In this document: in pieces, positions 182 to 39,200 of the stretch
How the letters are laid out: every line of letters begins with the position of its first letter
How positions within the stretch are numbered: position 1 is the first letter of the stretch
Notes under the pieces: generated by a model
What the model saw: only the letters and a program-made list of their open reading frames with translations
Database searches by the model: none
What the model was told of the DNA's origin: nothing
Assembly (NCBI GenBank): GCA_039189765.1
Contig: JBCCYL010000022.1
Location: forward strand, 1-64,000
Direction of reading: 5' to 3'
Source of the DNA: Cyanobacteria bacterium P01_F01_bin.150
Lineage (GTDB): Bacteria; Cyanobacteriota; Cyanobacteriia; CAKZMO01
DNA length: 64,000 bases
Position numbers and translations under genes: made by a program

Positions 182-3100
182 ATGTATTTTTCAGAAGCCA
201 TAATGCGTATAAACAAGAATAAATCACTTCATAAGAATAACTTTTATTGCATCTTTCCTGATCAAGTATGTCTAAGCATGAAATTTAATTTCAAATCTAC
301 AAGTCAGGCAGCCTATAGTTCTATGCGCAAAGTTTCATATGGCCAAAAAGTTACAGCTCAAATTTATTTCATATTTAAAGTCCTGCTGTATTTAAAGAAG
401 CAATATGAGAATGGAAACCATCCAAAAGGTTTTCTTTTACATGGGGAAAAAGGAAGTGAATTCAGTATAACAGCCAATGATTTGCGCAATCACTTGCTTA
501 ATAGTGAATATAGAAATGAATATGAAAAACATAAAGATACTAAACAAAAATATTATGATGCAGATAAAATAAGTAGTGAAAATATACGTGACAAACTCAG
601 TAAACAGTTTACAGATTTAGAAATATTAGAGCGCAAAAATAAAGATAGTAAAAAGGCAGATCTACATTATAGATTCAGGATATTTGACAAAATCGACGAT
701 AGCGCTAGCTTAGTATTAATTGAAGATTTTATACAAGAAAAGATAGCTCAAAAGAGATCAAGAAAGTTTATACAGGCAAGAGATAAGACAGAATCACCAC
801 GAAATATTCCTTTAGCATCAACATATTTTATTGGTCGAGAGAGTGAAATAGAGACCATATACACATATACAAAAAATAATATATTTATTGTCGCTATTTA
901 TGGAATGGGTGGGATAGGTAAAACAGAAGTTGCACTTCAATTTGCCAAAAAATATATTGATTATTATCCTGGTGGTTTACTATGGATTAAAGCAAGGGAA
1001 AGTGACAACGATATAAATTATATAGCAACTCAAATAGTAAATTTTTCAATACTAGAGCTAGAATTTCAGCCACCTAAATCTTCTGATATCAAAGATCAAG
1101 TTAGGTCCTGCTGGCGTAATTGGTGTAAACGGTATCCTGGCAAGAAACTAGTTATCCTTGATGATGTCACTAACTTTACAGGCTTAGTAGAACCATATTT
1201 GCCATCGGCAATGTCACAATTTCAAATCTTGATCACTACTAGAAATTTAAATATTGCAGAGTCAGAAAAATTCTCTACAGTCTCACTAGATGTATTAAAT
1301 TTAGATATCTCTGTCAAACTCATAAGAAAAATATTAAATTCAGATGATAGAAGAATTGAAAATGAACTAGATCAGATTCATAAATTGTGCAATTTTCTAG
1401 GCAATTTACCATTAGCACTAGAATTAGTTTCAAAATATATAAATAGGCGCAAAAGCCTTTCAGTAAAAAAGATAATGCAAAGACTTGTTGAGGCATCTCA
1501 ACCTCTCAAAGATAAGTCATTAATAGGAACAAGTGTTGGAATCACAAAGCAAGGTATTTCTGCAATTCTCGAGTTAAGTTGGCAAGAGTTAAGCCCTGGA
1601 GCACAGCTATTAGCAACATTACTGGCCTATTTTTCAAATGAATCAATTTATTGGGATTTAGTTGAAGATTGTTTAAATTCACAAGAAATTGAAGACTTAG
1701 AAGAGTTTCGAGATGAAGAACTAATCAATCTTAGCTTTCTCAAAGATAATGGAAATGATAGTTACAATATTCATTCTATCATTCATATGTTTTTCAACTT
1801 AAAGCTAGACATATGTCCTGAAAAAGGAATTCTTAAAGATTCATTTATTCAAGTAATGGTTAAGAATTCTCAAAGTTTCCCAAATTATCCTAGTAAGGAA
1901 GAGATTATTTCATTTTCTCAGATATCCTCTCACATAATAAATCTAGTAAATAAATTTGGTGGATGTCTAGGTGATACATCCACAGAGTTATTCTATATCA
2001 CTAAAGCTCTTGGCTCATTCTATAAATCAAAAGGATACTATAGTGAGGGAATTAATTGGCTTGATAAGTATATAAATATTTTAAATAACATATTCAAGAT
2101 AGAAAATAAGGATGACGATCATATTTTCACTTACATTGAAAATATTACTTTAGGTATATATCAAATCGCAGAGTGTCATGAAGCAAATGCATCTTACAAA
2201 GAAGCTAAAGATTACTATTACCAATTATTAAATTTATTCACTAATCAACTAGGATTGAGTTATTTTTCCGAGCCAATTATAGAAACCATCTCTAGAATTG
2301 GTTCAGTTTACAAAAATGAAGGCGATTATAATAAAGCAGAAGATTTATTTGGGCAAGCATTTAGTTACTCGCAAATGGTTATAGTAGATGGGTTGATTAA
2401 ATACTCAAATAAAAATAAAAATAAGCTAATTACTATACAAGCTTTATACAACCTAGCAGATATCTATCGACTCAAAGGACAATATGAATTGGCTGTGAAA
2501 ACTTTTAACGAGGCCCTAGAGCGTACCCAAAAAGGAGAAGGAGCCAGTAGCACAATATACATTCGAATTCTGAATCAATTAGGTCTAATAGCTCATGAGA
2601 AAAAGGCTCATGAAATGTCAGAAGAATATTTCAAAGCAGCTCTGGATTATATTCAAGATGAAAAAGTAAATGGTCATCCTGATATAGCAACAACAATGAA
2701 CAATATAGGACTATTGTATCAATCAACAGGAAATTATCAAGAGTCCGAACTATTTCATAATAAAGCCTTAGAAATTAGAAAAAAAATCTTTGGAGAAAGT
2801 CATCCTGATATTGCTCAAAGCCTTAATAACTTAGCCTCTCTGTATCGTGATAAAGGTGAATTAGATAAAGCTAAATTATTCTTTGAGATAGCTTTACAGC
2901 AATATCAAATTTTCTTTCATGAAAAACCTCATTTACTTTTAAGTTCCTATCATAGTTTAGCAGAGGTAAATTTTATGATATCGAACTATGACCAAGCTCA
3001 AAATCTCTATGAAGTATGCCTAGACATTATTAATAGCAATACAGTTTTAGATCCAACATATATTAAATTAGCACACATAAATATTCTGAAGCAATTAGGA

Positions 3101-3685
3101 GAAATGTCTGATGAACAAGAATCATATAATAAAGCAGAAAAATATTATCAATCAGCATTAGAAAATTGCCATAATTTAAACGAAGCTCAATTTCAATCTC
3201 ACAACAAAGATAAATATGAATTAACATATGAAATCACTTATCTCTTAGTAGATCTCTATGACAAGCAAGATAGAAGCGATGAATCTATTTTACTTATGGA
3301 AAATACCATCCTCTCACAAAAATCAAAATTCGGAAATAATCATATCTATGTTGCCTACAGTATTAATAAACTTGGGCTTATACATCATCAAAAATTTAAT
3401 TATGAAAAAGCAGAAGAATTATACTTTCAAGCCTTAGAAATTTATCAGAATATTTTAGTTAGTCCAAAAGAAAAAGAAGAGAAAACTATACGGATGATAT
3501 TATCATCTTTTAATAATTTAGGCTTAATTTTATTTCAAAAAGAAAAATATAATGAATCTTTTGAATTGTTAAAAGCAGCCTTAAAGATAGCTGTATCCTA
3601 TTTAGGTGAAAATCATTCAGATACTCTTTACATAATGCAACTCTTATTAACTCTAGAAGACTTATCTGGAATTTCAATAGATTAG
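182..3685 (+). CDS. STAND NTPase (NB-ARC) with C-terminal TPR repeats; bacterial NLR-like protein
   Basis: Walker A GMGGIGKT, Walker B LVILDDV, sensor ILITTR, GNLPLAL motif, then many TPRs (HPDIATTMNNIGLLY). True start may be a downstream Met (e.g. MKFNF at 278). Very AT-rich. Confidence 0.9.
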   Translation: MYFSEAIMRINKNKSLHKNNFYCIFPDQVCLSMKFNFKSTSQAAYSSMRKVSYGQKVTAQIYFIFKVLLYLKKQYENGNHPKGFLLHGEKGSEFSITANDLRNHLLNSEYRNEYEKHKDTKQKYYDADKISSENIRDKLSKQFTDLEILERKNKDSKKADLHYRFRIFDKIDDSASLVLIEDFIQEKIAQKRSRKFIQARDKTESPRNIPLASTYFIGRESEIETIYTYTKNNIFIVAIYGMGGIGKTEVALQFAKKYIDYYPGGLLWIKARESDNDINYIATQIVNFSILELEFQPPKSSDIKDQVRSCWRNWCKRYPGKKLVILDDVTNFTGLVEPYLPSAMSQFQILITTRNLNIAESEKFSTVSLDVLNLDISVKLIRKILNSDDRRIENELDQIHKLCNFLGNLPLALELVSKYINRRKSLSVKKIMQRLVEASQPLKDKSLIGTSVGITKQGISAILELSWQELSPGAQLLATLLAYFSNESIYWDLVEDCLNSQEIEDLEEFRDEELINLSFLKDNGNDSYNIHSIIHMFFNLKLDICPEKGILKDSFIQVMVKNSQSFPNYPSKEEIISFSQISSHIINLVNKFGGCLGDTSTELFYITKALGSFYKSKGYYSEGINWLDKYINILNNIFKIENKDDDHIFTYIENITLGIYQIAECHEANASYKEAKDYYYQLLNLFTNQLGLSYFSEPIIETISRIGSVYKNEGDYNKAEDLFGQAFSYSQMVIVDGLIKYSNKNKNKLITIQALYNLADIYRLKGQYELAVKTFNEALERTQKGEGASSTIYIRILNQLGLIAHEKKAHEMSEEYFKAALDYIQDEKVNGHPDIATTMNNIGLLYQSTGNYQESELFHNKALEIRKKIFGESHPDIAQSLNNLASLYRDKGELDKAKLFFEIALQQYQIFFHEKPHLLLSSYHSLAEVNFMISNYDQAQNLYEVCLDIINSNTVLDPTYIKLAHINILKQLGEMSDEQESYNKAEKYYQSALENCHNLNEAQFQSHNKDKYELTYEITYLLVDLYDKQDRSDESILLMENTILSQKSKFGNNHIYVAYSINKLGLIHHQKFNYEKAEELYFQALEIYQNILVSPKEKEEKTIRMILSSFNNLGLILFQKEKYNESFELLKAALKIAVSYLGENHSDTLYIMQLLLTLEDLSGISID

Positions 3686-3838
3686 AGATATTATCATATT
3701 CTCTCTAGAGATAAAAATAGTCTTTCAGAATATTTTTCAATCAATGTTCAGATACCGTATATTTTATAAGACTAAGCGTCCCTTCAATAAAGTCCATCTG
3801 CTTACCATCACCACAAACAGACTCTCGAAGATACACTC

Positions 3839-4345
3839 TTGATCTGTAAAAAAAACGATATCGCTCCTCATTACCTGCCCAATGATGAGCGGTTTTCCAT
3901 CCTCATCACTACCCGTTTGCAATTTGGGCCTCCGGTACAAGCATTCCCCGTTGATGTGCTCCACCACCAAGCACTAGAAGGTGACTATCAGGAAGACCCG
4001 ATATGGACACTCACCGCTCGGCGAGGTTTAGAAGCAGCCTTCGACCTCACCTGGGAAACACTCAATGCACCCAGCCGCATGTTCGCTAAGATGTTAGGGC
4101 ATTTTGAACCTGGCCCCATCAACTGGCACACAGTGGACATGATGAATCAGATTTTGGCAGAGGAGTATCCCGAAGACATTGGCTATGACCCTGAAAAGAT
4201 GCGTCGCGCCAGGTCTCTTCTCATGAAATACAGTCTCCTTAAACCCTTCGATAAGAAGACCTACAGGCTCCATCCTCTAATCCGTGAATTTTTCCGAGGC
4301 AAGACTACTGACGAGGAGTATTCACGGTATGACGCAACAGCGTGA
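3839..4345 (+). pseudogene. Truncated NB-ARC C-terminal/winged-helix fragment
   Basis: Has ILITTR, AAFDLTW and YRLHPLIREF motifs homologous to the upstream NB-ARC protein, but lacks Walker A/B and the GxPLAL helical segment. GC content rises abruptly near 3770. Confidence 0.65.
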
Positions 4346-5978
4346 ACACAATCACTTCACGGCCCACAATTTAGACCGAATATTTGTCAAAACTCAAGCA
4401 CGAATCGCTACACAACTCCCCTACAATCCCACACAGCAGGAATACCAGGATATTCTCCATGACATTCCACAGATTATTCGGGCCACAAGTCATTTGGACA
4501 ACCTTACGATGGAAGGTGCTTTTATTGAACTGTTCTGGTGTCTGGGCCATTTCTATAACGGACAAGGAGATTACCCAGAAGCAGAGAAGTGGTTACACGA
4601 TGACCTCGAAAAAGCTACTGCAAGCTTTACCCTGTATCACTCGACAGTCGCACGATCCCTCAACCTGCTTGGCATTCTGCATGTGATACAGGGCCAATAT
4701 GAGGAAGCCAAACCACTGTATGAACAGGCGATTGAAATCACGCCACAGATAGTTGATGACGACGAACCCGATATCACCTCCTATCTCAATAATCTTGCAG
4801 CACTCTATTATCACCAAAGCCGATATGACGAGGCGGAGGGGCTTTATTGGGAAGCATTAGACCTCACGACCGAGTTATATGGAGAAGACGATCCAGAACG
4901 AGCTGAGATACTCAATAACTTAGCTACGCTGCTGTATGACCAAGGGCGATTTGAAGACAGTGAAATTGTGTGTCTGGAAGCCCTCGCCATGCTCGAAAAT
5001 GACGAGGAGGAGGAGGAAAACGAATATGAGATTGAACCCCTCACAGCAGAAGTCTTGGGCAATCTCGCTGCTGTCTATCGGTCACAAGGAAAGTATCAGG
5101 AAGCAGAACTTGCCTATAGTGAGGCGTTGACGCTCACCAAACTCTTATTCGGAGAACAACATCGTAGCGTCGGAGTAATGCTCAACAATCTGGGAGAGTT
5201 CTATAAAGAGCGAGGGGATTATCAACAAGCTGAAAACCACTACGCAGAAGCATTGGCGATGCATCAGACCTTATTTGGGGAACTGCACCCCCAAGTCGCC
5301 ACCAGCCTTCATGGTCTCGCTACCATCTACCGTATTCACTATCGCTACGAAGACGCTGAAGAACTGTTTCTACAGGTCTTAACTCTGAGACGACAATTAC
5401 TGGGAGACGACCATAGTGAAGTGGTGGGTACCATGATTAATCTTGCCGCTATCCAGGAAGAACAAGGCCGTTATTCTACTGCGGAGAAGCTCCTACATCA
5501 TGCATTCAACAAAGCAGAGGCTCGCTTCGGTGAAACCCATCCGCTTACCATCACCGCTATGGGGAATTTAGCCTCCCTCTACAGCCAACTTGAGCATTAC
5601 CAGAAATCACAAGAGTTGTTGTTGCGATCACTAGCTCTTGCACGACAAGTCTTCGGTGACACTCATGTCAAAGTTGCAAGGGGTCTGCGTAATACTGCCG
5701 CACTTTGCCGAGCACAAGGCAAATACGAATCGGCCATTGAACTAGGTCGAGAAGCATTAGACATGACAACTGCGCTTGTTGGAGAAGAACATCCAGAGGT
5801 TGTGCCCTGTCTCAAAAGTCTTGCCCTGAGCCATCAAAGCTACCATAACTCCATCATGGCCTGTGCTCTTCTACAGCAAGCTACTGAGATACTCAGCTCG
5901 TTTCTGGGGAGAGACCATCCTGAAACAAAAGCAAACCTCGCTTTACTGGATGAGTGGCAAAGAACAGTTCAAAAATGA
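4329..5978 (+). CDS. TPR-repeat protein (kinesin-light-chain-like TPRs)
   Basis: Repeated LNNLAxLY...QGxYxEAE units. ATG at 4329 is in frame with ORF 4284..5978 and has GAGGAG at 4313-4318. Confidence 0.85.
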   Translation: MTQQREHNHFTAHNLDRIFVKTQARIATQLPYNPTQQEYQDILHDIPQIIRATSHLDNLTMEGAFIELFWCLGHFYNGQGDYPEAEKWLHDDLEKATASFTLYHSTVARSLNLLGILHVIQGQYEEAKPLYEQAIEITPQIVDDDEPDITSYLNNLAALYYHQSRYDEAEGLYWEALDLTTELYGEDDPERAEILNNLATLLYDQGRFEDSEIVCLEALAMLENDEEEEENEYEIEPLTAEVLGNLAAVYRSQGKYQEAELAYSEALTLTKLLFGEQHRSVGVMLNNLGEFYKERGDYQQAENHYAEALAMHQTLFGELHPQVATSLHGLATIYRIHYRYEDAEELFLQVLTLRRQLLGDDHSEVVGTMINLAAIQEEQGRYSTAEKLLHHAFNKAEARFGETHPLTITAMGNLASLYSQLEHYQKSQELLLRSLALARQVFGDTHVKVARGLRNTAALCRAQGKYESAIELGREALDMTTALVGEEHPEVVPCLKSLALSHQSYHNSIMACALLQQATEILSSFLGRDHPETKANLALLDEWQRTVQK

Positions 5979-6458: not shown

Positions 6459-7046
6459 ATGACAACTGAATATGAAAAGTCAACTATTGCAGAATCCAAT
6501 ATTCAAAAACCAGAAGAAGAAAATTTTTCATTAGCTTCACATTCAGCTATTTATGCAGCAGATTTAGCAGATTATAATTCTGGAATTTTAAGAGGAATAT
6601 GGATTCCAATTTTTGAAGATAGTGATAAATATACTATTCAAGATAAAATTCATGAAATGCTAGATGAAAAAGACCATGAAGAATATGCAATTCATGACTA
6701 CAATAATATACCATCTTCAGAACTAGGAGAATATCCAGATTTAGATGATGTCATCAAAGTCGCAAAAGCCGTACATCAGCATGGATATAATTTAATTGAT
6801 CAATACATTAATTCTTTCAGCATAGAAGACTTAAAGGATTTAGAAGATAGATTTTTGGGAATTTATGAAAGTGTAGAAGATTATGCTTACGAATATATAA
6901 ATAGTTGTTATAAAATGGAAAAGATGTTGGGGAATCTTGTACATTATTTTGACTATCAATCTTATGGCAATGATTTAATTCTGGGTGGTGATATTATCAG
7001 CATAAATCTATCAATAGATGAGGTTCTCATATTATCACCATATTAG
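6459..7046 (+). CDS. ardA: Antirestriction protein ArdA (acidic DNA mimic)
   Basis: IYAADLADYNSGILRGIWI, EEYAIHDY and YFDYQSYGNDL motifs typical of ArdA; strongly acidic; AAAGGA RBS upstream. Confidence 0.88.
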   Translation: MTTEYEKSTIAESNIQKPEEENFSLASHSAIYAADLADYNSGILRGIWIPIFEDSDKYTIQDKIHEMLDEKDHEEYAIHDYNNIPSSELGEYPDLDDVIKVAKAVHQHGYNLIDQYINSFSIEDLKDLEDRFLGIYESVEDYAYEYINSCYKMEKMLGNLVHYFDYQSYGNDLILGGDIISINLSIDEVLILSPY

Positions 7047-7138: not shown

Positions 7139-7387
7139 ATGAAGATAGAAGAGTTTTTACAAGAATATGGAATAACAGGGTTAACAAAAATGATTCACGG
7201 AATTCTTAAAGATGCCTATTATGAAGGAGTGATAGATAAAAAAGATATTGATTTTGAGGATATATTTCCTTTTCCACCCTCTGAAATCACAGAAGTACAT
7301 TTTTATCATAAAGGAATTGGGGACGGGGTATTTCTCGTCAATAAAGAAGGTAAGAAATACAATTGCTATGGTGAGCTAGTAAAATAA
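7139..7387 (+). CDS. Small acidic hypothetical protein
   Basis: 82-aa ORF co-oriented with ardA in the same AT-rich block; no recognised domain. Confidence 0.6.
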   Translation: MKIEEFLQEYGITGLTKMIHGILKDAYYEGVIDKKDIDFEDIFPFPPSEITEVHFYHKGIGDGVFLVNKEGKKYNCYGELVK

Positions 7388-7420
7388 AATCTCACCAAGT
7401 CTAAAAAATTGCATTAAGGA

Positions 7421-7598
7421 AAAAAGTTATTCTAGCTTTTCCACAGCTAGTGCTCTCAACTCAGCAATCATCCCGCAAAAACCACTGGTCACTAGCTATG
7501 GAAAAGCTAGAATAACTTTTTGATTTATCCACAGATAGCGACTCTACTAGACGGACCTCTGAATGGTCCTCATGATGGTCGCTATCTGTGGATAAATC
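7421..7598. repeat. Two adjacent long inverted repeats with DnaA boxes in the arms
   Basis: Arms 7421-7452/7490-7521 (32 bp, 1 mismatch) and 7522-7542/7578-7598 (21 bp, perfect). TTATCCACA at 7525-7533, TGTGGATAA at 7587-7595, TTTTCCACA at 7437-7445. Confidence 0.85.
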
Positions 7599-7804
7599 CA
7601 TGACTCCCGCTCTCGCTCGATCCCGTTGTCGAGGACTCTGAGGTAGTCATAGCATAGTTTTTCTTCTTGCTACTTGGGTCCACTTCACTTTGCAGATAGA
7701 ATTTTCGTCATACTATAGAGATCTGTATGAGCCACAGTGGAAGCAATCAAATACTACCCCATACTAATTTATCGAATCTTCCTTATTCAATAAAAATTCA
7801 GTCA

Positions 7805-7843
7805 GAATAAAAAAAGAGTACTCACATAATGTGAATACTCTTT
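7805..7843 (-). terminator. Intrinsic terminator directly after the I-F-like unit
   Basis: Minus strand reads GAGTATTCACA-tta-TGTGAGTACTC followed by TTTTTTTATT. Confidence 0.65.
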
Positions 7844-7933
7844 CAAAAGCTGCCTGTTCGGCAGTAAAAAATTACTTATATTAATAAATAATCTTATTTG
7901 AAGCTTTTCTAAACTGCCTGTCCGGCAGTATAC
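7842..7933 (-). CRISPR. Orphan mini-array: two type I-F-like repeats flanking one 36-nt spacer
   Basis: Minus strand: GTATACTGCCGGACAGGCAGTTTAGAAA (7933-7906) and TTTTACTGCCGAACAGGCAGCTTTTGAA (7869-7842). Both resemble the I-F consensus GTTCACTGCCGTATAGGCAGCTAAGAAA with the CTGCC/GGCAG stem intact. No cas operon in the window. Confidence 0.7.
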
Positions 7934-8234
7934 ATGAATTAGATTAACTGATTTCTATTTTAGATTCAAATATTTTTTCAGGATGAATTGCTTTTTAGGT
8001 TGCATTGCTTATACTTCCTCTACTGACATTTTTTATGTTTTAAAAAATATTTTGGTTACATAAACAGTTGTTTAAGCTGCTAAATTTACCCAGTGGCTAC
8101 CCCGTCGGGTATCCTCTGGTAAGCAGTGGTAAATTACCCAGTGTTATATCCATCAATAAGTCAACATACCAAGGCACCGAAGGTGCCAGAGGCATTTCAC
8201 ACAGATGAGGTGAAAAAAGAAGGCCAGGGCAGGT

Positions 8235-9101
8235 TCAGGAAAAGGAAGACTGGTCAGCAATAGAACCATCAAGGCAATACAAATGGTCTCCCATAGCTCC
8301 TGTAGTCGGCTGATGTATAACCTCTCCTAATTCCAGTAGAGATCGCTCTAAATGAAGGGGGATAACTTGCCCAAATTCTCTCACTCGCTCGTCAAAAATA
8401 ACAATCTCACTTTCTCTGACTTCAGCGACCGGGATCTGAGATTGTTCCATAATGCCTTCTGACACTCTTAGCCTAGTCACAGTCTCCAAATGAGTCAGTG
8501 ATGGAACATTTTTACAACCAGCAGAGAGTACATTAAACACGTTGTCATTACTCTGCTCAAGGTGGTGACGAAAATCTAAGCAATATCCAAACTCATCCAA
8601 GTCCTCAATCAATTCACCTACATCTAATCTATCAAGCGGGAGAAATAGCTTAGTTCTTCGGGGATACTGCTCTCGTTCACTCGTCCCATTCAAAGGATCA
8701 CAAATAGTGATGCGTGATCGCCCTCTCTTCGCCACTTGAACAGGGGTCCACACATAAACGGTATGAACACGATAGTCTTCCCAATCAAGAGCATCCATAA
8801 CTCTTCGGCGGTAAATACAGTCAGTTGTCACAGTGGCTGGTGGTGACGGCTCACCCGAAGACTGCTCAGTAGCCTCGACCACCTGTGCTCTCGACATTTC
8901 TTTGAGTGCAGCATCAGTTATCACCCCACGTAACCATTCAATGCGCTCTTTTTGGGATTTAGACCGCACCCATGCATCAATCGACTGTGGGACTTTAACC
9001 GCTAGGGGCTGTTTGGCAAGGGGTTCATCTGGCAACTCAGAGATAGGCTTAAATTGCTTGGTCTTAAACTCAGTCGTTTGTACAGGATGGGGATTCGGCA
9101 T
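8235..9101 (-). CDS. Hypothetical protein with possible N-terminal ribbon-helix-helix-like segment
   Basis: 288-aa ORF. N-terminal PLAVKVPQSIDAWVRSK...EWLRGVI has an RHH-like strand-helix-helix pattern. Confidence 0.65.
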   Translation of the reverse strand: MPNPHPVQTTEFKTKQFKPISELPDEPLAKQPLAVKVPQSIDAWVRSKSQKERIEWLRGVITDAALKEMSRAQVVEATEQSSGEPSPPATVTTDCIYRRRVMDALDWEDYRVHTVYVWTPVQVAKRGRSRITICDPLNGTSEREQYPRRTKLFLPLDRLDVGELIEDLDEFGYCLDFRHHLEQSNDNVFNVLSAGCKNVPSLTHLETVTRLRVSEGIMEQSQIPVAEVRESEIVIFDERVREFGQVIPLHLERSLLELGEVIHQPTTGAMGDHLYCLDGSIADQSSFS

Positions 9102-9130
9102 GGAAGACAGGCATACTTCACAGTTTTGCT

Positions 9131-9193
9131 ATTTTATCCCGGTTACCGTGATATATGGTTACTGATATTGTTTCATGGTTACCGGGATAAAAT
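9131..9193. promoter_or_regulatory. Inverted-repeat operator-like site upstream of 8235..9101
   Basis: ATTTTATCCCGGTTACCGTGA / TCATGGTTACCGGGATAAAAT (21 bp, 2 mismatches); three GGTTAC copies. Confidence 0.5.
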
Positions 9194-9639
9194 TCTGATA
9201 TCAGCCATGACACGCCTTACCAAACACCGAACCACTTGCAACCCCCACCTCACGCAAGAATAAGGAAAAAATTTATTTCCAGCTTTCCCACAAGCCCAAG
9301 GCTCAAATACACGCCTCAAAATAAGTCCTTCCCTTTTGCCATCCAAGCTGTTAACATCCCAAGACTAAAAGGATTTTTATACGGTTCTATTACTACGGGG
9401 ACATAACCCGTGGGCTGTCTTGATTTTCACTCCTGCGGGTTGTTACATGTCCCCGCTTCTCATACCTCTTACCATCGGCCTTCTGCGTGAGGCACACGAT
9501 AGGTCATTACCTACTCCATGCTCGCCGATATGATGTTTGTCATTTTTATGGCCCCAAACGCCCGAAAACTCTTGATTTTTCTCAATCACTCCTGTTAGCC
9601 TTTCGCACCATACGCTGTGTGTTCATGACTTCGCTAAAC

Positions 9640-10545
9640 ATGATGGTGAATGCTATGACACGGCTACCGTATTTGAGCGACGATTACACCTTGGCTTGGG
9701 GCTTACCACCTCAAGTAAAAAAGGACAGGGTTGCTCCTGTAACGTAATCGAACTCTTAGCGTATAGTGCCTGGAGACGGGCTGGCTATATGCGAGGGAGG
9801 CTCGTTGAAGTAATCCTGCATGAATGCAGAGTAATCTCAACGTTCGATCCCATACCCAAAACTTTGGTATTTAACGGAAATTGGGCGACCGAGACATACC
9901 TTATCTCTACACAGTGAGGTAAGGCCGTATGAGTAGGAATGGTGAAACAATAATCCATCCAAGGGGGGAATAGGCTAAGTGAGTAATCATAAGCCGTTCA
10001 ACCCTTGCCAGCGTAGGGAGCTTGGGCATGGTGACATGTTCAATCGGGGGATGATAACCACCGACGACTGTACGAAATTACAGCGGTGAAAAGCTCAACT
10101 ATGAAAGGCGGGAAACCGCTTGCTGGTAAGAGTAAAGAGAGACGCAAGGCCGAACCGTTGAAAAGACCTTACGTGGTAATCCAGGAGCTTCTGCTTTCTG
10201 CCTGGGGAAATCTGCAATGAGAATGGCTTCAAGCCATCAGCGTAAGTGTCCTGCTGATAATAACCAGCTAGCGACGTGACTCTTTATTCGACTATTCATG
10301 CTAATCGGGGAAGGTCTGAGTTGGGCGAGAAGTTGCTATCCCGCCACCTGCCCTTATCAGGCAGTGAAAAAAGACATCAGACTGGGAGCGGGGAGCAAGT
10401 AGGGGCAAAGGTCTATGACCTTCGGGGGACAACTGGCAAGGCAGTCAGGAATCTCTTCGTGATCGGGGGTGGTAGCCCGATCAATTAACGACTACGAAAG
10501 CTCTGAGGAGGTCTCGAATCAAATACGGTAGCCTCCACCATGATG
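9640..10545 (+). ncRNA. Candidate giant structured non-coding RNA (~900 nt), family unassigned
   Basis: Perfect 15-bp terminal helix 9662-9676/10519-10533, nested long-range pairings, many GNRA/UUCG-capped hairpins with G-U pairs favouring the + strand. No credible ORF. Confidence 0.75.
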
Positions 10546-10831
10546 GGTTGAGGGATGCTCTATGAATCAAGAGAGTATCCCTCAACCACACACAGTACAA
10601 ACAGTGAATACTCTTTTTGCGAGGAACACCATGCCTATGAAGCACTGCACTTAGGACAGACCACATTCTCAAGACATATGCCTCAAACGGCGTTTGAGGT
10701 GAAATCAAAACACTTTTTACTAAAGCACGTAAGTAGTTGGTTTTTATGGCAATTGTTACGGCTTTAAGGAAAGTGGGTGCGCGGCGATTCTACGGTCGTA
10801 GAGGGCTACTGCGCCCCACCCGGTATTTCTG

Positions 10832-10872
10832 GCACTGGTTGACCGCAAACAAACCAGTGCTTCCTTTTTCTT
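10832..10872 (+). terminator. Terminator/attenuator-like hairpin just before the RBS of 10891..11481
   Basis: GCACTGGTT...AACCAGTGC followed by TTCCTTTTTCTT; AAGGAG at 10880-10885. Confidence 0.5.
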
Positions 10873-10890
10873 GGTCTAAAAGGAGACAAA

Positions 10891-11481
10891 ATGACAGCAT
10901 GGTATGAAGTTTCTAACGTGGGGCAATTCCTTGGACGCATAGCCAATATCTACATCTGGAACGGCTACACCCGCTATGCCGTCCGGCATATACCATCGGA
11001 TAAATCCCCTCAAGCTGTGGATACAAAAATATTGAGCTGCTATCACATCACCCAATGTCGCATGACAAGAATGCGTCATGCTGCCAGGGGTGAGGCCAAA
11101 GTAGGATATATCAGGTTTGGAAGGACGTTCATTTTAGTGGCGACAACTGGCAAGCATAAAGCTTTTGGCAGAATCCAATCACATGACTTCTACACCAGTC
11201 CCCTGCACTACTACCACTACTCAGTGGGAATTAGAAATCAAAAACCATGTATCAGAATCGCCCACAAAACGTGGAAATGGGCTGAGCATCGGATCTCAAA
11301 GATGGCACTCCACGACCACGACAAGGTGCAGCAAGCACTACAAGATCTCCCCTATTACAACTTTGTCGGCGTCCAGGAACAGAAACGACATCTGATCGCA
11401 CACATCAACGCTCGTAGAAAACGAGCGGGTCTGCCTCTCATTAGCAACCAAAATATCTTGCCCAAAGACGGGACCATGTGA
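10891..11481 (+). CDS. Basic hypothetical protein (196 aa), possible nucleic-acid-binding partner of the upstream RNA
   Basis: Strong AAGGAG RBS; rich in R, K, H and Y; C-terminal INARRKRAGL. No assignable catalytic family. Confidence 0.8.
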   Translation: MTAWYEVSNVGQFLGRIANIYIWNGYTRYAVRHIPSDKSPQAVDTKILSCYHITQCRMTRMRHAARGEAKVGYIRFGRTFILVATTGKHKAFGRIQSHDFYTSPLHYYHYSVGIRNQKPCIRIAHKTWKWAEHRISKMALHDHDKVQQALQDLPYYNFVGVQEQKRHLIAHINARRKRAGLPLISNQNILPKDGTM

Positions 11482-11720
11482 CTCTCTGCGGAGAACTTGT
11501 CAGGCGAAGCATTGACAAGTTCCTTCGCCATCGGGCCATAACAGCATCCTCCAACAGGTCTACCGATTTCACCCCGTCAGGGGAAACAAACAGACGAAGC
11601 CCTGACCTTTTCACAAGCTGTATTCTGTAGTCATTGAAGGAACGGCAAGCATACACCTCAAGGGTCGCCTTCTAAAGATTTTTCAAGTTTGAGATCATGG
11701 GGGCTATTTGATCTCTGTTG

Positions 11721-11750
11721 AACCCGACCAATGGTCGGGTTTTTCTCTTT
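11721..11750 (+). terminator. Intrinsic terminator
   Basis: AACCCGACCA-a-TGGTCGGGTT plus T tract. Confidence 0.7.
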
Positions 11751-11917
11751 TTACTCACAGTGACATCTATCACGCTATCCCTCGACCAAGAACACCATCA
11801 AAGCTTTGGAACACGGAGGGGAAAGGGTGAAGTACTTACTACACACACAACGAACAGAAACAACATTTGAAAGTTTTGCATTCTTCCGTCTGCAACACTT
11901 CTCTCTAAACACACCCC

Positions 11918-11952
11918 AAATCCCGGTCAAGGAGTAGACTGGGATTTTTTTT
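11918..11952 (+). terminator. Intrinsic terminator
   Basis: AAATCCCGGTC...GACTGGGATTTTTTTT. Confidence 0.6.
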
Positions 11953-12050
11953 GCACATCAGGACATATGCGCCCAACCAATTAGCCCTCCTCACATGAAG
12001 GTAACAGGACTACATGGACGCTATAGACCCAAGCTGATATAGTCATCTCC

Positions 12051-13109
12051 ATGCCTAAACAATCCTCTCTCTTCCCTGAAGACAACTACAAAACACTCCT
12101 GGGAAATCTGAAACAACGCATTGAAGAAGCCCAACTCAAAGTAGCATTGACAGCTAATCAAACTGGGGTCTATTTATACTGGCAAATCGGTCAAGAGATT
12201 TTAGCGCAGCAAAAGAAACAAGGATGGGGCAGTAAGGTAATCGACAGACTCTCCCAAGATTTGAAGCGAGCATTTCCAAACATGCGGGGATTCTCCCCCA
12301 GAAACCTCAAATATATGCGAACATTCGCAGCTGCCTATCCGAACGAGGAAATAGTGCTGCAAACGATTGCGAATGTTCCATGGGGGCACAACCAAACGTT
12401 ACTCAACAAACTGGATGATATAGAGCAACGTCTTTGGTATGCCCAACAAAGCTCAGAGTATGGTTGGAGTCGCAACGTCTTGGAAATGCAGATTGAGACT
12501 AATTTGTTCAAACGTCAGGGAGGTGCGATCACGAACTTTGAACGCACATTACCTCCAGCCAACTCTGATCTTAGTCAGCAGCTTTTGAAAGACCCGTACA
12601 ATCTGGATTTTTTCTCGCTTGCACGAAATGCTCAAGAGCGTGATTTAGAAAATGCTCTTGTGAACCATATGAAAGACTTCCTCCTAGAGCTAGGAGTTGG
12701 ATTTGCCTTTGTCGGTAGCCAGTATCGCTTAGATGTCGAAGGAGATGAGTATTTTCTTGACCTGTTGCTGTATCACCTGAAGTTGCACTGCTATGTCGTG
12801 ATTGATCTCAAAATGGCAGAATTCAAGCCAGAATACGCTGGTAAGATGAATTTCTACGTCACGGCGGTCAATCGGCTCCTTAAAGACGAGCGAGATGATC
12901 CCACCATCGGAATCGTGCTGTGTCGCTCAAAAAAGAGGACTGTCGTCGAATTCGCACTGGATACTGTACACAACCCCATCGGTGTTGCAACATACAAATT
13001 AAGAGAAGATTTACCACCAGCACTACGCAAAAGCTTACCCAGTGCAGAGCAGCTTGAGTTCGAGCTAGAAAAAGCTGCTCAAGCCCTCGAATCGGAAAAG
13101 AAGAAGTAA
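12051..13109 (+). CDS. YhcG/DUF1016 family PD-(D/E)XK nuclease
   Basis: LYWQIG, GWGSKVIDRLSQDL, GFSPRNLKYMR, KDPYNLDF, LLELGVGFAFVGSQY and IDLK...GKMNFY motifs. Confidence 0.92.
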   Translation: MPKQSSLFPEDNYKTLLGNLKQRIEEAQLKVALTANQTGVYLYWQIGQEILAQQKKQGWGSKVIDRLSQDLKRAFPNMRGFSPRNLKYMRTFAAAYPNEEIVLQTIANVPWGHNQTLLNKLDDIEQRLWYAQQSSEYGWSRNVLEMQIETNLFKRQGGAITNFERTLPPANSDLSQQLLKDPYNLDFFSLARNAQERDLENALVNHMKDFLLELGVGFAFVGSQYRLDVEGDEYFLDLLLYHLKLHCYVVIDLKMAEFKPEYAGKMNFYVTAVNRLLKDERDDPTIGIVLCRSKKRTVVEFALDTVHNPIGVATYKLREDLPPALRKSLPSAEQLEFELEKAAQALESEKKK

Positions 13110-14350: not shown

Positions 14351-15376
14351 CTATAAGTTTTTAGCAACTTTACGGCACCAAGCGAGAAAGGCTTGGTCAG
14401 GGTCTTTAATATCGAATTTATTCCTCGCTGTTGATTTCTTCCATGCATCCTCCAGAGCATAAATATCTTTACTAGGTAAATATTGCTTCGCAATTTCATA
14501 TGTGGTTGTCTTTAGCCCCTGTGGGTTCTGTAACGCTACTTCTGCTAAAGGAAAGGATTTAGTGGAAACTCGCGTAGCACTCAAATAATCGTGCCCCGAA
14601 CGTTTAGTCATTACCAATTTGTATTCAAGCAGTGCGCCCTTTGCAGCAACGTTTCTCAGCGCGGTCGAAAAATCTGAAAATCGCTGTGTACTCCCTGAGC
14701 GTTTATGGAGAGTAGAGAAATACCATCCCCAACCACGACGATTACTTCCAGCCTGTTTTCGAACAAGCCGATAGAGCCAACGTTCTATACCTCCTGTGAG
14801 AAGAAAATAATCAGGATTGATGGTGAGCAAAAGGCGCTTATCACTCACGGCTTCAAAAAGCCACTCTGGAATAACCACGGTCACATACTTAATCCTTCCA
14901 TGTTCGTCTCGTTCAAATTCTCCATACTCAAGCCAACTGAACATAACTGTTTTTTCGCGCTTGGCACGTACTGTAGTGACCACTGTTGTATTTTTTAGAC
15001 GTTTGAGAGACTGACCAAAACGTTCATATTGAATTCCCCCAATGTTACGGCGAACTGCCATAAAGAATTTATAGGGATGAAAACGGATTCTTCTGGTGGG
15101 CACTTCACCACGGTCAATAGCTTCTCGAAGCTGAGACAATAACCACATGACAAGATCCCAATCCCATATGGTGGCTATGCCATAAGGAGCACCACCTGTG
15201 ACAGTAATTTTTGCATTTTCAGATTGATATTCTATGGGCTTCAATCGGGTTCTTTTAGAAAGACTCAGAAAAGGAAGCTCCATTGTCTCCTGTGAATCAC
15301 GAGTAGAAATATCGGTGAACACATTCGAAAAAAGGCTGAGCTGCGTATTGTATTCGGGGGGATTTCTGATTGCCAT
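14351..15376 (-). CDS. repA: Plasmid replication initiator, RPA (replication initiator protein A) family
   Basis: MELPFLSLSK, YGIATIWDWDL, IPEWLF, LLTINPDYFLLTGGIERWLYRLVRK and C-terminal PDQAFLAWC; adjacent to iterons and parAB. Confidence 0.88.
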   Translation of the reverse strand: MAIRNPPEYNTQLSLFSNVFTDISTRDSQETMELPFLSLSKRTRLKPIEYQSENAKITVTGGAPYGIATIWDWDLVMWLLSQLREAIDRGEVPTRRIRFHPYKFFMAVRRNIGGIQYERFGQSLKRLKNTTVVTTVRAKREKTVMFSWLEYGEFERDEHGRIKYVTVVIPEWLFEAVSDKRLLLTINPDYFLLTGGIERWLYRLVRKQAGSNRRGWGWYFSTLHKRSGSTQRFSDFSTALRNVAAKGALLEYKLVMTKRSGHDYLSATRVSTKSFPLAEVALQNPQGLKTTTYEIAKQYLPSKDIYALEDAWKKSTARNKFDIKDPDQAFLAWCRKVAKNL

Positions 15377-15459
15377 AGCCCTCTCACCTCGGAGAGGGTG
15401 TCCTGCAAACCCCCTTCCTCCAAAAGTTACATCACATTGTTCGCATTATTTGGTGAGAG

Positions 15460-16605
15460 CTAACTATCTACCATTGAATCGATTTCATCAAGCAACTTTT
15501 GGATTTTTTTAAGTCGAGACTGAACCTTTTTGTTTCCTAATGTCTCTTGTAAGCGTTTATTTTGAAATCGTTTGACTCTTCTCACAATGGAAATCTGAAG
15601 AGGCTCTTCTTCAACTTCTTCTGAAGACTCCGCAAGTGTTGACTCCTGTTGCAAACTTTGCACATCATCCGAAGCTATATAAGTACCTGATTTTATTGCT
15701 TTTTTACGCTCTCGAATTTGACCAATAGTAGGGTTATCTTTAAGAATCCAAGCCAGTAAAGCACCTTTGTAAGCGTCATCGACGGAGGAAATTTCAACGA
15801 GCTTATTCCAGTCAGATTCACTGAATAACTTCAGCACAGGCACTGACGAAATCTCAGCCAACGAATCTTTAGCCTTCAGGATTTTACGAGCCTTCCCTCG
15901 AAAACCCAAGAGGGAACCCTTTCCAAAGTCTGAGAGAACTTTTTCTATGATTTCAACTTTGGGAGCGATGTCGCTCCCAATTTCTTCTCCCTTAGAATTG
16001 AAATACTTAACTCTGTCAAGAATCGTCAAGGTATCCTTCACAGAGAATGTCCCCCCTTGCCAATCTTCTATTTGAGCAGCCATCTCACCAAGTAAGCCTT
16101 CAACTTCTTCAAGGGCACTCAGGTCTTGACGGTTCAAATTCTCTTCTAAATGAATGCGTCGAGCTTGTTTATCAGTGACATCCAAAATATCAGCGGGAGC
16201 CTTGCCCCAATCAAGCTCCTGGGCAGCTTTACAACGAGTCTCACCATAGACAAGCTCATACAGGTACTTATCATCAAGGTTTAGCTCTGATTTCTTTTCT
16301 TCTGAAAGTAAACGTACTGCTATGCGACCAGGGAAACGATTGGTCTCCAGCATACTTTTTTTATGCTTAGCGATCTGATCGGGATCAAAGTACTTTCTTG
16401 ACTGCTCTGGAAAGTACACAGCATCCAAATCAATCAGGCTAGAATCCTGTGACTGAAAAGCATCGTTTTCCTCGCCCAATGAACCGCTCGCATCTTCCGC
16501 TATGGCTGGGGCATCAGGGGTAAGCTCTTCAGCTACCTCATTAGTTGTTTCAAGCTCCCTTGCATTCTGGATGAGGTTACCCAATGAACTTTTTCTTCTT
16601 CCCAT
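15460..16605 (-). CDS. parB: ParB-family partition protein
   Basis: QSRKYFD, YELVYGETRCKAA and ENLNRQDLSALEE motifs; coupled to parA. Confidence 0.88.
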   Translation of the reverse strand: MGRRKSSLGNLIQNARELETTNEVAEELTPDAPAIAEDASGSLGEENDAFQSQDSSLIDLDAVYFPEQSRKYFDPDQIAKHKKSMLETNRFPGRIAVRLLSEEKKSELNLDDKYLYELVYGETRCKAAQELDWGKAPADILDVTDKQARRIHLEENLNRQDLSALEEVEGLLGEMAAQIEDWQGGTFSVKDTLTILDRVKYFNSKGEEIGSDIAPKVEIIEKVLSDFGKGSLLGFRGKARKILKAKDSLAEISSVPVLKLFSESDWNKLVEISSVDDAYKGALLAWILKDNPTIGQIRERKKAIKSGTYIASDDVQSLQQESTLAESSEEVEEEPLQISIVRRVKRFQNKRLQETLGNKKVQSRLKKIQKLLDEIDSMVDS

Positions 16606-17237
16606 TATGATTCTCCTACAGCGTTCTCAAACTCTTTCTGAATTTCATCTCCCAAGGAGAGAAAATCACGCCAAATATCCTTTGCATTATTTTCGGAGCA
16701 ATCTTTCACAATGCCACCCGAAAGCGGCAATCGCTCAATGAAAGCGTATTTCCGTATTTCTGTATTGAAGTAAGCAATGTTGGATTCATCAAAATCTTGC
16801 TTGATATCAGCCCCCAGCCTTGTAGCCGTAGGTGGCATCATCGAAAGCAACACTCGATAGCAAGCACCTAATTTTTCTGCTGAGTTCACAGTTTGCACCA
16901 TGACATCAATATCCATAGGCCGTGGTGTTGTCGGGAGAATCAACAAGTCACAACCTTCAGCAATATCCTGAAATTCGTCAGGAGAAGGTCTTGCCTTGGT
17001 ATCGATCACGATAAATTCAGGCATGAGAGACATCAATACCTTTTGAGCTTTGTTTTGAGGCACTACTGGAAATGGGAGAGGTTGAGTTCTTTGAGACCAT
17101 CGTTCTGCACTGCGATTTTCATCAGCATCAATGAGAAGTACCTTGCCATGCTGACTCAAACAGGCAGCTACATGAACTGCTACGGTCGTCTTACTTATCC
17201 CACCTTTATATCCTGCAACGCTGATTATCTGGGACAT
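16605..17237 (-). CDS. parA: ParA-family partition ATPase
   Basis: Deviant Walker A KGGISKTT, LLIDAD, IVIDT. Confidence 0.92.
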   Translation of the reverse strand: MSQIISVAGYKGGISKTTVAVHVAACLSQHGKVLLIDADENRSAERWSQRTQPLPFPVVPQNKAQKVLMSLMPEFIVIDTKARPSPDEFQDIAEGCDLLILPTTPRPMDIDVMVQTVNSAEKLGACYRVLLSMMPPTATRLGADIKQDFDESNIAYFNTEIRKYAFIERLPLSGGIVKDCSENNAKDIWRDFLSLGDEIQKEFENAVGES

Positions 17238-36268: not shown

Positions 36269-39200
36269 CTATCTATTAATTCTAAATCCTTCAATTTCTC
36301 CCCACAATTCACATACTGAATTTATAAATACTTGAGGTGAAATTTTCTGATTTCCTTGAAGGGCTGAAAAGAAAATACCCGCAGCACCTGCTAATCTTCT
36401 AATACCCAATGGACCTACTGCAAAACTAGCAAGGGCTGTTGTTGCTAAAGGTCCAGCTAGCAACCAGCCAAGGCCAGCGCCAACTCCACCACCAAGTGCA
36501 GCTCCAGTAACAAATCCTACGGTTGCCGATACATACTCATCACCTGATTCATTAAGTTCAGGACAATCAATAGGTGCACTAATAAATCCTGCTATTAATC
36601 CTGAAAGACTAAGTACAACGGATCCTTTAATAGCGGTCGATAAAATAGAAACCTCTCCAGATGGATCAACATAAGCTATGGGGTTATTGAAGCCATAGAT
36701 ATAATCTTGCAATGATAGTGGTTGCTCATTCAAACCTTCAAATGGGTCTCTAGAGTCAAACCTCCCTGTTGCTGGATCGTAATACCTAGCTCTCAAATAG
36801 TAACTATCTAAATTCGGATCAAACTGCTCCCCTGCAAAGAGATAATCATTAGGTGTAGAGCCACTCTGATCAATCAGTTGACCAAAAGCATCGTAATTAT
36901 ATGTATCTGTCAACACTCCATTTTGATTTGTCAGAATTCGAGAACTACCAAGGCCATCAACCTGATAGAAGCTACGCTCACCACCATTCTCCTGAGAAAT
37001 TAAGTCTTGACCATGTACATAAGAAGTCTGCACATCACCGTTCAATGTGTACTCCTCGATTACTTGGGCATAGGTCTGCTGATTATTATCAATTAAGAAT
37101 CGAGTTTCCTCTCCATTGACATTCAGCGAAACACGAATTCCTTCATGGTCATATTCGTACTCAATCCGTCCAGTTTCACCATTCTCATTGATGTTGACTG
37201 CTATTAGCTCACCTTTGGCATTCCATTCATAGGTTGCCTGATTCTCACCGTTTTGGAGCTTCGCAGTAAGATTACCATCATCGTCATATCGATATTCAGT
37301 GGTCAGGTCATTAAGCATTTCTGCGAAGAGGCGATCGTTCTCGTCGTATTGATAGGTAGTAGTGCCCTCAACAGAATCAATCCGCTGCAAACGGTTACCA
37401 ACATCATCAAAGCGATACTCAATAGTTCGGGTAGTTTCTCCTGAAGGAATAATAGTTTCTTGTTCCAAACGATAGAGAACATCGTAGTCATACTGCACTA
37501 CACGACCATCAGCTTCAGTGACCTGAGTGCGATTTCCAACGGCATCCAAAAGATAATCGTAGCTAGAAAGCACTGTGCCATTACTGTCCTTGTTTTCCAA
37601 ACGCTCCAGACGATTGAGACTATCGTATTCACGAGATTCCACCACACCATTAGCAAAATCTGTCTGAATCAAATTGCCCACATCGTCATAGATATAGCGG
37701 GTTTCACCACCATCGGGATCGGTTACGGTGTCGATGCGATTGAGGGCATCGTAGGTGTAGGAGGTAGTACCAGAGGGGACAGCCAAACTTAGAATATTCC
37801 CCGCATCATCATAGGTATAGGCAATAGTGCGACCATCAGGATTCTCGCGGGAGAGGAGGCGATCGCGCTCATCGTACTCATAGTTGGTGAACCCTAGGGC
37901 ATCGGTCACAGTATCGAGTTGCCCTGTGGGAGTATAAGCAAATTGCTCCACCTCACCGTCTGGCAGCGTCGTAGTGATTAAGCGATTTCGCTCATCGTAA
38001 TCATACTCAATGGTTTCATTGTTGAAATCAGTCACCGTCTTCACATTGCCCACCGCATCGTAGGTGGTAATGCTCTCTTGACCCAACGGAAGAATCATTT
38101 TCGTCCGTTGCCCCAAGTCATCGTATTCAAAAGTAGTGACATTACCATTAGCATCTTCCTGAGTCTGGATATTGCCCAGCAAATCACGGCTATAGGTAGT
38201 TGTGTTATCCAAAGCATCGATAACTTCTATCAGTCGCCCTCGTTCATCGTATTCAAAAGTAGTAGTGTTTCCTTCCTGATCTATCGCTGCCTTGATATTA
38301 CCCAAACCATCATAGGTGGTACGACTGATAGTGCCATCGGCATAGCGCACTTCTATTTGTTGACCAATCTTGTTGTAGATAAACTCTGTAGTGCGATTTA
38401 AAGCATCAATTTCGAAACGCAGACGATTCGCTTCATCATAGATGAAGCGAGTTTCATATCCTAAAGCATCCCTTCTCAGAATAAGATTGCCTGCTTTATC
38501 GTAGTCAAAGGTAGTTCGGTGACCCAACTCATCAATTGATACAATCAAGCGACCTGCCTTGTCGTATACATTTTCAATGCGAGGATTATCGTTGGGATTG
38601 TTAGGTGTATCGTCGGGATAGAGAATAAATCGTTGGCGACCAAGAGCATCATACTCATAGCGAGTCTCTTGTCCAGCTTCATTCGTCACCGAAATTAGCT
38701 GATCAAGGGCATCATAGGTATTGGTAATGCGATCATTGTCGTCGGGATTATCAGGCGTATCGTCTGGAAAAATAGTTGCCACTAATAAGCCACGATCGTT
38801 ATAAACATACTCGGTGCGATTGCCCAGTGCATCAATATCCGCAATCTTATCGCCAAAGCCATTGTACTCAATACGGCTAACATTATTCAGAGCATCAATA
38901 CGCTCAACAACACGTCCCTCATTGTCATATCTAGTGACGAATTCATTGTTGAGAGGGTCAATCAACATTTCTGGATTACCATTGTCATCATAAGTGAATC
39001 TGTAGGTGGCTCCAGCCAGATCAGTTAGCTTTCTCAGATTGCCATAATCATCATATTCAAAGCGCGTCTCATTATTGTTGGCATCAGTGATGGATGTGAG
39101 TAGTCCAAATCCATTTTCGTCATAACCATAGAGAGTGATATGTCCCTCCGCATCCTCACGAGTTTCCAAATTCCCCTGAATATCGTAGGTATTAGTGGTG

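Follow-up and report, generated by a model that had tools for sequence, protein, structure and literature searches.

Positions 9640-11952 of a 64,000-nt stretch of contig JBCCYL010000022.1 from Cyanobacteria bacterium P01_F01_bin.150 (assembly GCA_039189765.1; the whole stretch, positions 1 to 64,000 of the forward strand, is called the window below) carry an RNA and a protein gene that belong together: an 873-nt structured RNA (9662-10534) is followed on the same plus strand by a structured spacer and then by a gene encoding a basic 196-aa protein (10891-11481). The pairing is genuine and conserved, an RNA-protein unit whose kind is already known but whose form here is divergent and widespread. 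The order of the RNA domains is permuted, domain 5 (D5), domain 6 (D6) and the closing helix covary, the protein is homologous to AcpG, which was reported with group II RNA of circularly permuted (CP) form, and the order and strand of the two parts are fixed across many phyla. The explanation that we favour, and consider likely, is that the block is a single unit of a CP group II ribozyme, a 356-nt spacer and an AcpG-family gene, the protein being a cofactor derived from a reverse transcriptase (RT).

CP group II ribozymes ("T-large") were described by Roth, Weinberg, Vanderschuren, Murdock and Breaker in 2021 and are proven catalysts whose biological role was stated to be unknown, AcpG having been reported with no homology to known proteins and no clue to its function (PMC8637638). 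Thermus, Firmicutes and Proteobacteria are the groups named for the published set, and none of "Planctomyc", "Cyanobacteri", "Leptolyngbya", "Calothrix" or "Pirellul" occurs in the four supplementary files of that paper (PMC8637638). In the literature searched AcpG appears together with "group II" only there and in one unrelated paper, and neither further literature searches nor passages of two recent structural papers (PMC13717195 and bioRxiv 10.64898/2025.12.30.696962) mention an AcpG fold or the clade to which the window unit belongs.

The first-pass annotation of the window had read the block as an undescribed ribonucleoprotein (RNP) system built around an orphan protein. The idea of RNA and gene as one module has held up, as the two are a conserved and co-oriented unit; the novelty claimed for it has not, the RNA having the CP group II architecture and the genetic link between AcpG and such RNA having been published in 2021 (PMC8637638). 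The initial reading, a new RNA beside an orphan protein, was ruled out by the 469 clusters of relatives that the protein has, by matches to the Rfam model RF00029 in related loci and by the hhalign comparison with AcpG. What may be new is the breadth of the clade, which spans Cyanobacteria, Planctomycetota, Acidobacteriota and other phyla, the position of the gene, which is like that of an intron-encoded protein, and the predicted fold, which comes closest to known structures of group II intron and retron RTs yet has one conserved acid only. A large clade across phyla that keeps the protein gene tied to the ribozyme, in the place of a gene for an intron-encoded protein, and that has an RT-like predicted fold leads to a concrete hypothesis, that AcpG is a maturase, and to a path by which a mobile intron may have evolved into a permuted ribozyme; its repeated placement by RepA, ParA and ParB hints at where a phenotype may lie.

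Domain order and pairing of the RNA

We regard it as very probable that the RNA at 9662-10534 (plus strand) is a CP group II ribozyme, with the layout D5-D6-linker-D1 to D4. There is no open reading frame (ORF) longer than 86 aa on the plus strand of 9102-10890, and in an alignment of 42 non-redundant loci conserved RNA blocks run from about 9650 to 10510. The suggestion that a large structured RNA is present here was well founded, as its blocks are kept across these 42 loci, D5 and D6 covary and a 15-bp helix joins its ends.

D5 is a 34-nt hairpin at 9759-9792 with a 9-bp lower stem, a 2-nt bulge (9782-9783), a 5-bp upper stem and a GNRA loop (9773-9776), and so has the length, triad position, bulge and GNRA-type loop of its counterpart in the CP group II class; in an alignment of 39 sequences its 14 pairs are formed in 99.1% of cells, 10 of them with compensatory changes. 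D6 follows at 9796-9850, with a conserved symmetric internal loop and a bulged adenosine at 9847, flanked by pairs of the basal stem and itself unpaired, as is the branch adenosine of the class. Its 11 basal pairs are formed in 94.4% of cells, with compensatory changes in nine, and its 3' strand matches the D6 strand of the published CP group II alignment. Over the two domains 97.0% of cells are paired in the 39 segments and 19 of 25 pairs are changed on both sides, a degree of pairing that none of 500 shuffles matched and that fell to only 30-48% in slid controls. All 25 pairs tested are retained in the window via compensatory changes.

The rest of the ribozyme lies downstream of D5-D6 (9759-9850), which is the permuted order. 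After D6 an AT at 9852-9853 resembles a 3' splice site, and a variable linker (9854-9882) leads to a 5' splice-site-like block at 9883-9896, which starts with GGGCGAC, marks the beginning of D1 and is conserved in all aligned loci. The linker is 29 nt long in the window and between about 20 and about 280 nt at other loci, and a small hairpin spans 9852-9870; in the published ribozymes it is the stretch between D6 and D1 that is excised as a small circle (PMC8637638). Targets complementary to the 29-nt linker were sought within the window and two 10-mers were found, both on the same strand and at the level expected by chance. GGGCGAC occurs 59 times at the equivalent place in the published CP group II alignment, and also in the Thermus plasmid pTT8, and in the window it is followed by about 650 nt of conserved RNA, to 10534. 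Within this stretch lies the most conserved block, 23 nt at 10088-10110, which served as a search pattern (19 specified bases) and gave 69 matches in genome contigs against about four estimated by chance. A D5-D6 model built by us (R1) matches the window at 9755-9853 with 93.4 bits; in none of the 71 sources did it detect a further D5-D6 beyond the ORF.

The ends of the RNA are set by a closing helix, found by an ungapped helix scan, in which 9662-9676, about 90 nt before D5, pairs with 10520-10534. It consists of 15 perfect base pairs, which none of 40 shuffles reached, and an equivalent helix of mostly different sequence is present in 30 of 44 loci, in each of which no more than 5% of shuffles reach it. 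Pairing of the two ends is a property of the CP group II class, where it is termed omega-omega' (PMC13717195). The helix is the equivalent of the D4 stem of a canonical group II intron, and the protein gene, coming after its 5' strand, therefore sits where such an intron carries the gene for its intron-encoded protein, a position that we infer from topology. The likeness to canonical introns extends to D5 and D6, to the place of the gene and to the structures nearest to the protein, whereas the domain order in the window is permuted and there are no flanking exons.

This layout is that of the published ribozymes, which are noncoding RNAs about 900 nt long, carried by plasmids as well as chromosomes, with D5 and D6 at the 5' end, ends that pair, a variable linker with a small hairpin between AY-like and GGGCGAC blocks, and a large D1-like domain thereafter (PMC8637638). 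Of the D1-D3 tertiary elements of the class (EBS/IBS, epsilon, J2/3, pseudoknots P1/P2), inspection by eye picked out just a loop motif in a 5' hairpin. The same blocks occur in the same order in pTT8, where R1 with filters off has its best match (17.8 bits, E 0.002) inside the published row NC_006463.1/6026-4860. Of 23 related loci scanned, eight (3/6 and 5/17) match the Rfam group II D5-D6 model RF00029 at its gathering score, always on the strand of the 23-nt motif and 210-340 nt upstream of it.

Several results count against this identification. Rfam gives no relevant match on the window at gathering scores, nor on 9000-12100 at E<=10, and its D1-D4 models match neither the window nor the related loci scanned. 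R1 with default filters has no match on pTT8, and nhmmer with the conserved core likewise finds nothing there by default and only three collinear matches (E 0.22-0.86) with --max, so that any sequence similarity to the published Thermus RNA is marginal. The D5 triad position, as discussed below, reads CGU and differs from that of relatives. No CP group II family appears among the Rfam 15 matches, even for pTT8. The whole RNA was also folded by RNAalifold on a raw MAFFT alignment; the resulting structure was unreliable and was not used.

The AcpG-family protein and its predicted fold

The protein encoded at 10891-11481 is 196 aa long and, as had been stated, rich in R, K, H and Y (R17, K13, H13, Y12), with a pI of 10.17 and a net charge of +19. 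A word-based protein search finds one relative only; in an exhaustive search its relatives number 469 representative clusters at E<=1e-3, or 197 when the cut-off is E<=1e-10, and it is therefore not an orphan. Its homology to AcpG, which we hold to be very probable, appears at the level of profiles: an alignment of 94 members of the window family (A1) aligned by hhalign to one of 28 relatives of the Thermus AcpG (A4) scores 96.6% (E 5.3e-10, 162 columns), and the window family against the single pTT8 protein (TTHC007/AcpG) 46.6% (E 2e-4), whilst single-sequence searches make no link between the window protein and AcpG. The pTT8 protein is encoded by a 259-aa ORF divergent from the RNA, which fits the published description. 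The two proteins have the same order of secondary-structure elements and are encoded beside the same kind of RNA, in the window family at 52 of 68 genome loci and three of three plasmid loci. They differ in size (about 200 aa against about 260 for AcpG) and in the setting of their genes, that of the window clade being always co-oriented with and directly downstream of the RNA, whereas acpG is found in all orientations and sometimes kilobases away (PMC8637638). AcpG was moreover reported without known homology (PMC8637638), whereas the fold predicted for the window family points to reverse transcriptases. Among the 94 members PHROGs gave one weak match, and a profile search of PDB sequences returned only an RNase P protein (E 0.92), which was taken as chance.

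The AlphaFold2 model of the window protein is confident (pLDDT 95.5), and the nearest structures to it are RTs. Among the best 30 rows listed by Foldseek against the PDB, 28 are RTs or viral RNA polymerases, the top 11 being group II intron or retron RTs (best 8t2r_D, E 6e-4, TMq 0.53), and the neighbours include RTs of group II introns, retrons, DRT2, DRT9 and G2L4. In the ESM Atlas the six Pfam-annotated clusters among the nine neighbours shown are all group II intron RT/maturases (TM 0.65-0.68 over 184-191 of 196 residues), these being structural neighbours from outside the protein's own family. For the Thermus AcpG model the top two Foldseek matches are again intron RTs (E 0.054 and 0.3). 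The predicted fold looks like a stripped-down, inactive intron RT. On our reading of the order of elements in the model, set against the general anatomy of RTs, two hairpins may stand where RTs have motifs C and E, minus the catalytic aspartates. The RT sequence motifs, including the catalytic Asp (YxDD), are not found among the 94 members, in which D44 is the sole nearly invariant acidic residue.

The case for an RT ancestry is weakened in several respects. Only two Foldseek matches of the window model reach E<=1e-3, and the rmsd is about 8 Å; the Thermus AcpG model has no match at that threshold; compared by hhalign with a true intron RT, the window family scores 0.13%; and none of the 94 members matches Pfam or NCBIfam, so that the likeness to RTs is structural only and invisible to sequence methods. 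The window protein is also a third of the size of an intron RT/maturase, has no RVT_1, GIIM or HNH match and has no conserved catalytic Asp. Retrons and the DRT2 and DRT9 defence RTs are alike in that a structured noncoding RNA precedes a protein of RT fold, and they are among the Foldseek matches, but these are active polymerases of at least 300 aa with much shorter noncoding RNAs. Descent of the protein from an intron-encoded RT is thus a proposition that we find evenly balanced.

Linkage of RNA and gene, and what it may mean

The 69 genome matches to the 23-nt pattern correspond to 68 distinct loci, two of them being the same Calothrix region (L004 and L005). At 52 loci there is a D5-D6 match upstream and the protein gene downstream, in all cases on the same strand. 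The protein alone is present at four loci, of which two run into a contig end and two are missing the RNA's 5' part; three loci have D5-D6 alone, two of them cut and one intact; neither is present at nine, eight of which have the motif within a long ORF. In each of the 56 loci with the gene it is co-oriented with the RNA, and in 55 of them it begins 756-1170 nt downstream of the motif. The exception is L050, from a Phycisphaeraceae metagenome-assembled genome (MAG), where the gene follows the motif at a distance of 4195 nt instead of the usual 1 kb or so, apparently because of an insertion between ribozyme and gene. The ninth locus with neither part (L030, from a Verrucomicrobiia MAG) has the motif in its usual hairpin context.

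The genome sample was found through the RNA, and plasmids were therefore searched by protein, with three family members as queries. Three distinct loci were found (four Leptolyngbya boryana strains being counted as one), in L. boryana, Calothrix and Planctomycetes bacterium K2D pK2D_1, and the RNA lies upstream in all three, as the first-pass annotation would have it. In two of the plasmids, Calothrix sp. NIES-4101 plasmid5 and L. boryana pLBX, the ORF-free stretch upstream of the gene shares blocks with window positions 9750-10520; blastn of 9100-12000 against plasmids gives only a 117-nt match, in Calothrix. Where copies occur within one genome, similarity ends at or just before the stop codon, and the copies in Symploca have only the RNA and the protein gene in common.

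Calothrix plasmid5 also holds a truncated second copy of the 5' half of the ribozyme (L005:2553-2658, equal to L001 at about 3560-4290), with a D5-D6 match of 88 bits and the 23-nt motif, 2.1 kb upstream of the full unit; no protein gene goes with it, and at its end stands a series of short direct repeats.

Against a fixed linkage it must be said that a sample gathered via the RNA motif cannot count proteins without RNA, that the intact locus with D5-D6 and motif (L018, from a Blastocatellia MAG) has no AcpG-like ORF within 5 kb downstream, and that in the published set many CP RNAs have no acpG nearby and the orientation is variable (PMC8637638).

By analogy with the published ribozymes, the D6 adenosine at 9847 would attack the splice-site-like junction at 9882/9883, and the freed end of the linker would then attack the junction after 9853. 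The expected result would be the 29-nt linker as a small circle and a 2'-5' branched RNA, the 3' arm of which would bear D1-D4 and, on read-through, the acpG message. The fold and the gene position suggest that the protein arose from an intron-encoded RT/maturase that would have lost its polymerase chemistry and kept the place of its gene after the 5' strand of D4, and that it may act as an RNA-binding cofactor of the ribozyme. We rate this cofactor role as possible, at slightly under an even chance. The fullest form of the proposal, which we put forward tentatively, is that AcpG-type proteins are catalytically dead, fingers-less descendants of group II intron RT/maturases, with a gene that kept its ancestral place while the intron was permuted, and that they serve CP group II ribozymes as their maturase, whereby the unit would be a complete, domesticated permuted intron RNP in plasmid replication and partition regions. 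That AcpG is a relic of an intron RT acting as a maturase is plausible but unproven. The hairpin at the start of the ORF, described below, presumably recalls the maturase binding site DIVa of canonical group II introns.

The two parts might be neighbours for another reason, the protein serving the plasmid in replication, partition or some other DNA function and the ribozyme being a separate passenger of the same backbones. The unit does lie in replication and partition regions: ParA-like ATPases recur at 30 loci, RepA (PF10134) at 21 and ParB at eight, the window has parA-parB-repA at 14351-17237, and in pK2D_1 RepA is upstream of the unit; Roth et al. themselves caution that the association may not mean a physical interaction (PMC8637638). 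The spacing and strand of RNA and gene are fixed across phyla, however, whereas the rep and par genes vary in place and strand, the Symploca copies share the RNA and protein gene and nothing more, and the fold predicted is that of an RNA-handling enzyme family, all of which makes this account unlikely.

It is also doubtful, to a similar degree, that the window copy is a decaying relic whose ribozyme is unreactive and whose module is passively carried. The D5 triad position (9760-9762) reads CGT (CGU in the RNA), with the partner bases altered to match, which is unique among the 39 aligned sequences, 27 of which have AGC and 11 CGC; for this reason the ribozyme copy in the window may be weak or dead. 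The failure of Rfam to detect the window and the truncated second RNA copy in Calothrix would fit with decay. A relic would not be expected, though, to keep 25 of 25 D5/D6 pairs, a perfect closing helix and an intact ORF with every near-invariant residue of the family.

A further reading, also offered in the first-pass annotation, makes the RNA mainly a leader or attenuator acting in cis to set expression of the protein. The spacer (10535-10890, 356 nt) is structured, as had been claimed: the fold of 10535-10895 has an energy of -120.6 kcal/mol, whereas 100 shuffles give -92.8 +/- 5.2 (z -5.4) and none of them is as stable. Its occupancy and conservation in the 42-locus alignment are low. At its 3' end is a conserved hairpin with a pyrimidine tract (10831-10871, plus strand; stem 10831-10840/10852-10861, loop 10841-10851, tract 10862-10871), which recurs at 33 of 53 distinct loci (reached by no more than 5% of 200 shuffles), the tract following it and the loop starting G[CG]C at 25 of 53. 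In the window's minimum free energy (MFE) fold this tract is base-paired to the Shine-Dalgarno sequence at 10880-10885, and no promoter-like site was found between RNA and gene. The element is a candidate terminator, anti-Shine-Dalgarno element or protein-binding site. As a hairpin next to the ribosome binding site (RBS) is a family feature, some control of gene expression by RNA is plausible, and hairpin and tract would end most ribozyme transcripts or limit translation. As the main purpose of the RNA we nevertheless find this improbable: 873 nt that include D5 and D6, a bulged A and junctions resembling splice sites go far beyond the needs of a leader, the published relatives are active ribozymes, and acpG of the Thermus type is often divergent from its RNA (PMC8637638).

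Lastly, a group II intron of the ordinary, non-permuted sort, whole or fragmentary, beside an unrelated ORF is scarcely credible, for although the Rfam D5-D6 model of canonical introns matches relatives and true intron RT genes adjoin three loci, D5-D6 lies 5' of the large conserved domain with none after the ORF in the 71 sources, a helix joins the RNA ends and similarity within genomes stops at the stop codon.

Other features of the block and its surroundings

The remaining hairpins of the spacer had been correctly noticed: a 16-nt inverted repeat (10546-10561/10572-10587, 94%), a 9-nt one (10681-10689/10691-10699) and a GC-rich hairpin at about 10773-10819, present in both MFE and centroid folds. 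These are lineage-specific, and of the spacer hairpins listed in the first-pass annotation it is only the terminator-like stem before the RBS (10832-10840/10852-10860, 9 nt, or 10 bp when extended to 10831-10840/10852-10861) that recurs in other loci. Directly after the stop codon there is a further hairpin on the plus strand (11493-11522; inverted repeat 11493-11502/11513-11522, 10 nt), a local feature, as copies within a genome diverge at or just before the stop codon. Both terminators that had been placed after the gene were recovered by a terminator scan, the first an intrinsic-terminator-like site at 11720-11752 (match 11720-11742) and the second at 11918-11957 (match 11918-11947), each on the plus strand.

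At 31 loci a long antisense ORF (up to 256 aa), conserved to a degree that lets it form clusters by BLASTP, lies over the AcpG-like gene on the minus strand; it can probably be put down to shadow frames in GC-rich genomes. At three Planctomycetota loci (L003:2675-4531, and L019 and L024 with a member of that cluster) the gene of a complete, canonical group II intron protein (619 aa, with RVT_1, maturase and HNH) lies just upstream of the permuted ribozyme, and there is therefore an ordinary intron beside or inside the unit there.

Integrase, ArdC, RNase T and PIN genes also recur as neighbours, and the window has ArdA at 6459-7046. Upstream of the unit are an NB-ARC/TPR protein of 1167 aa (182-3685) and a TPR protein of 564 aa (4284-5978), a STAND-type NTPase architecture in a plasmid-like element. 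A 21-nt inverted repeat (9131-9151/9173-9193, 90% complementary) is intergenic and lies near the start of a divergent 288-aa ORF (8235-9101) that has no Pfam match; the repeat may be an operator. A single Rfam match to CRISPR-DR4 at 7906-7933 on the minus strand (35.7 bits) is just over the gathering score, with no repeat array in 7300-8300. Further downstream, an ORF of 4286 aa occupies 36269-49129.

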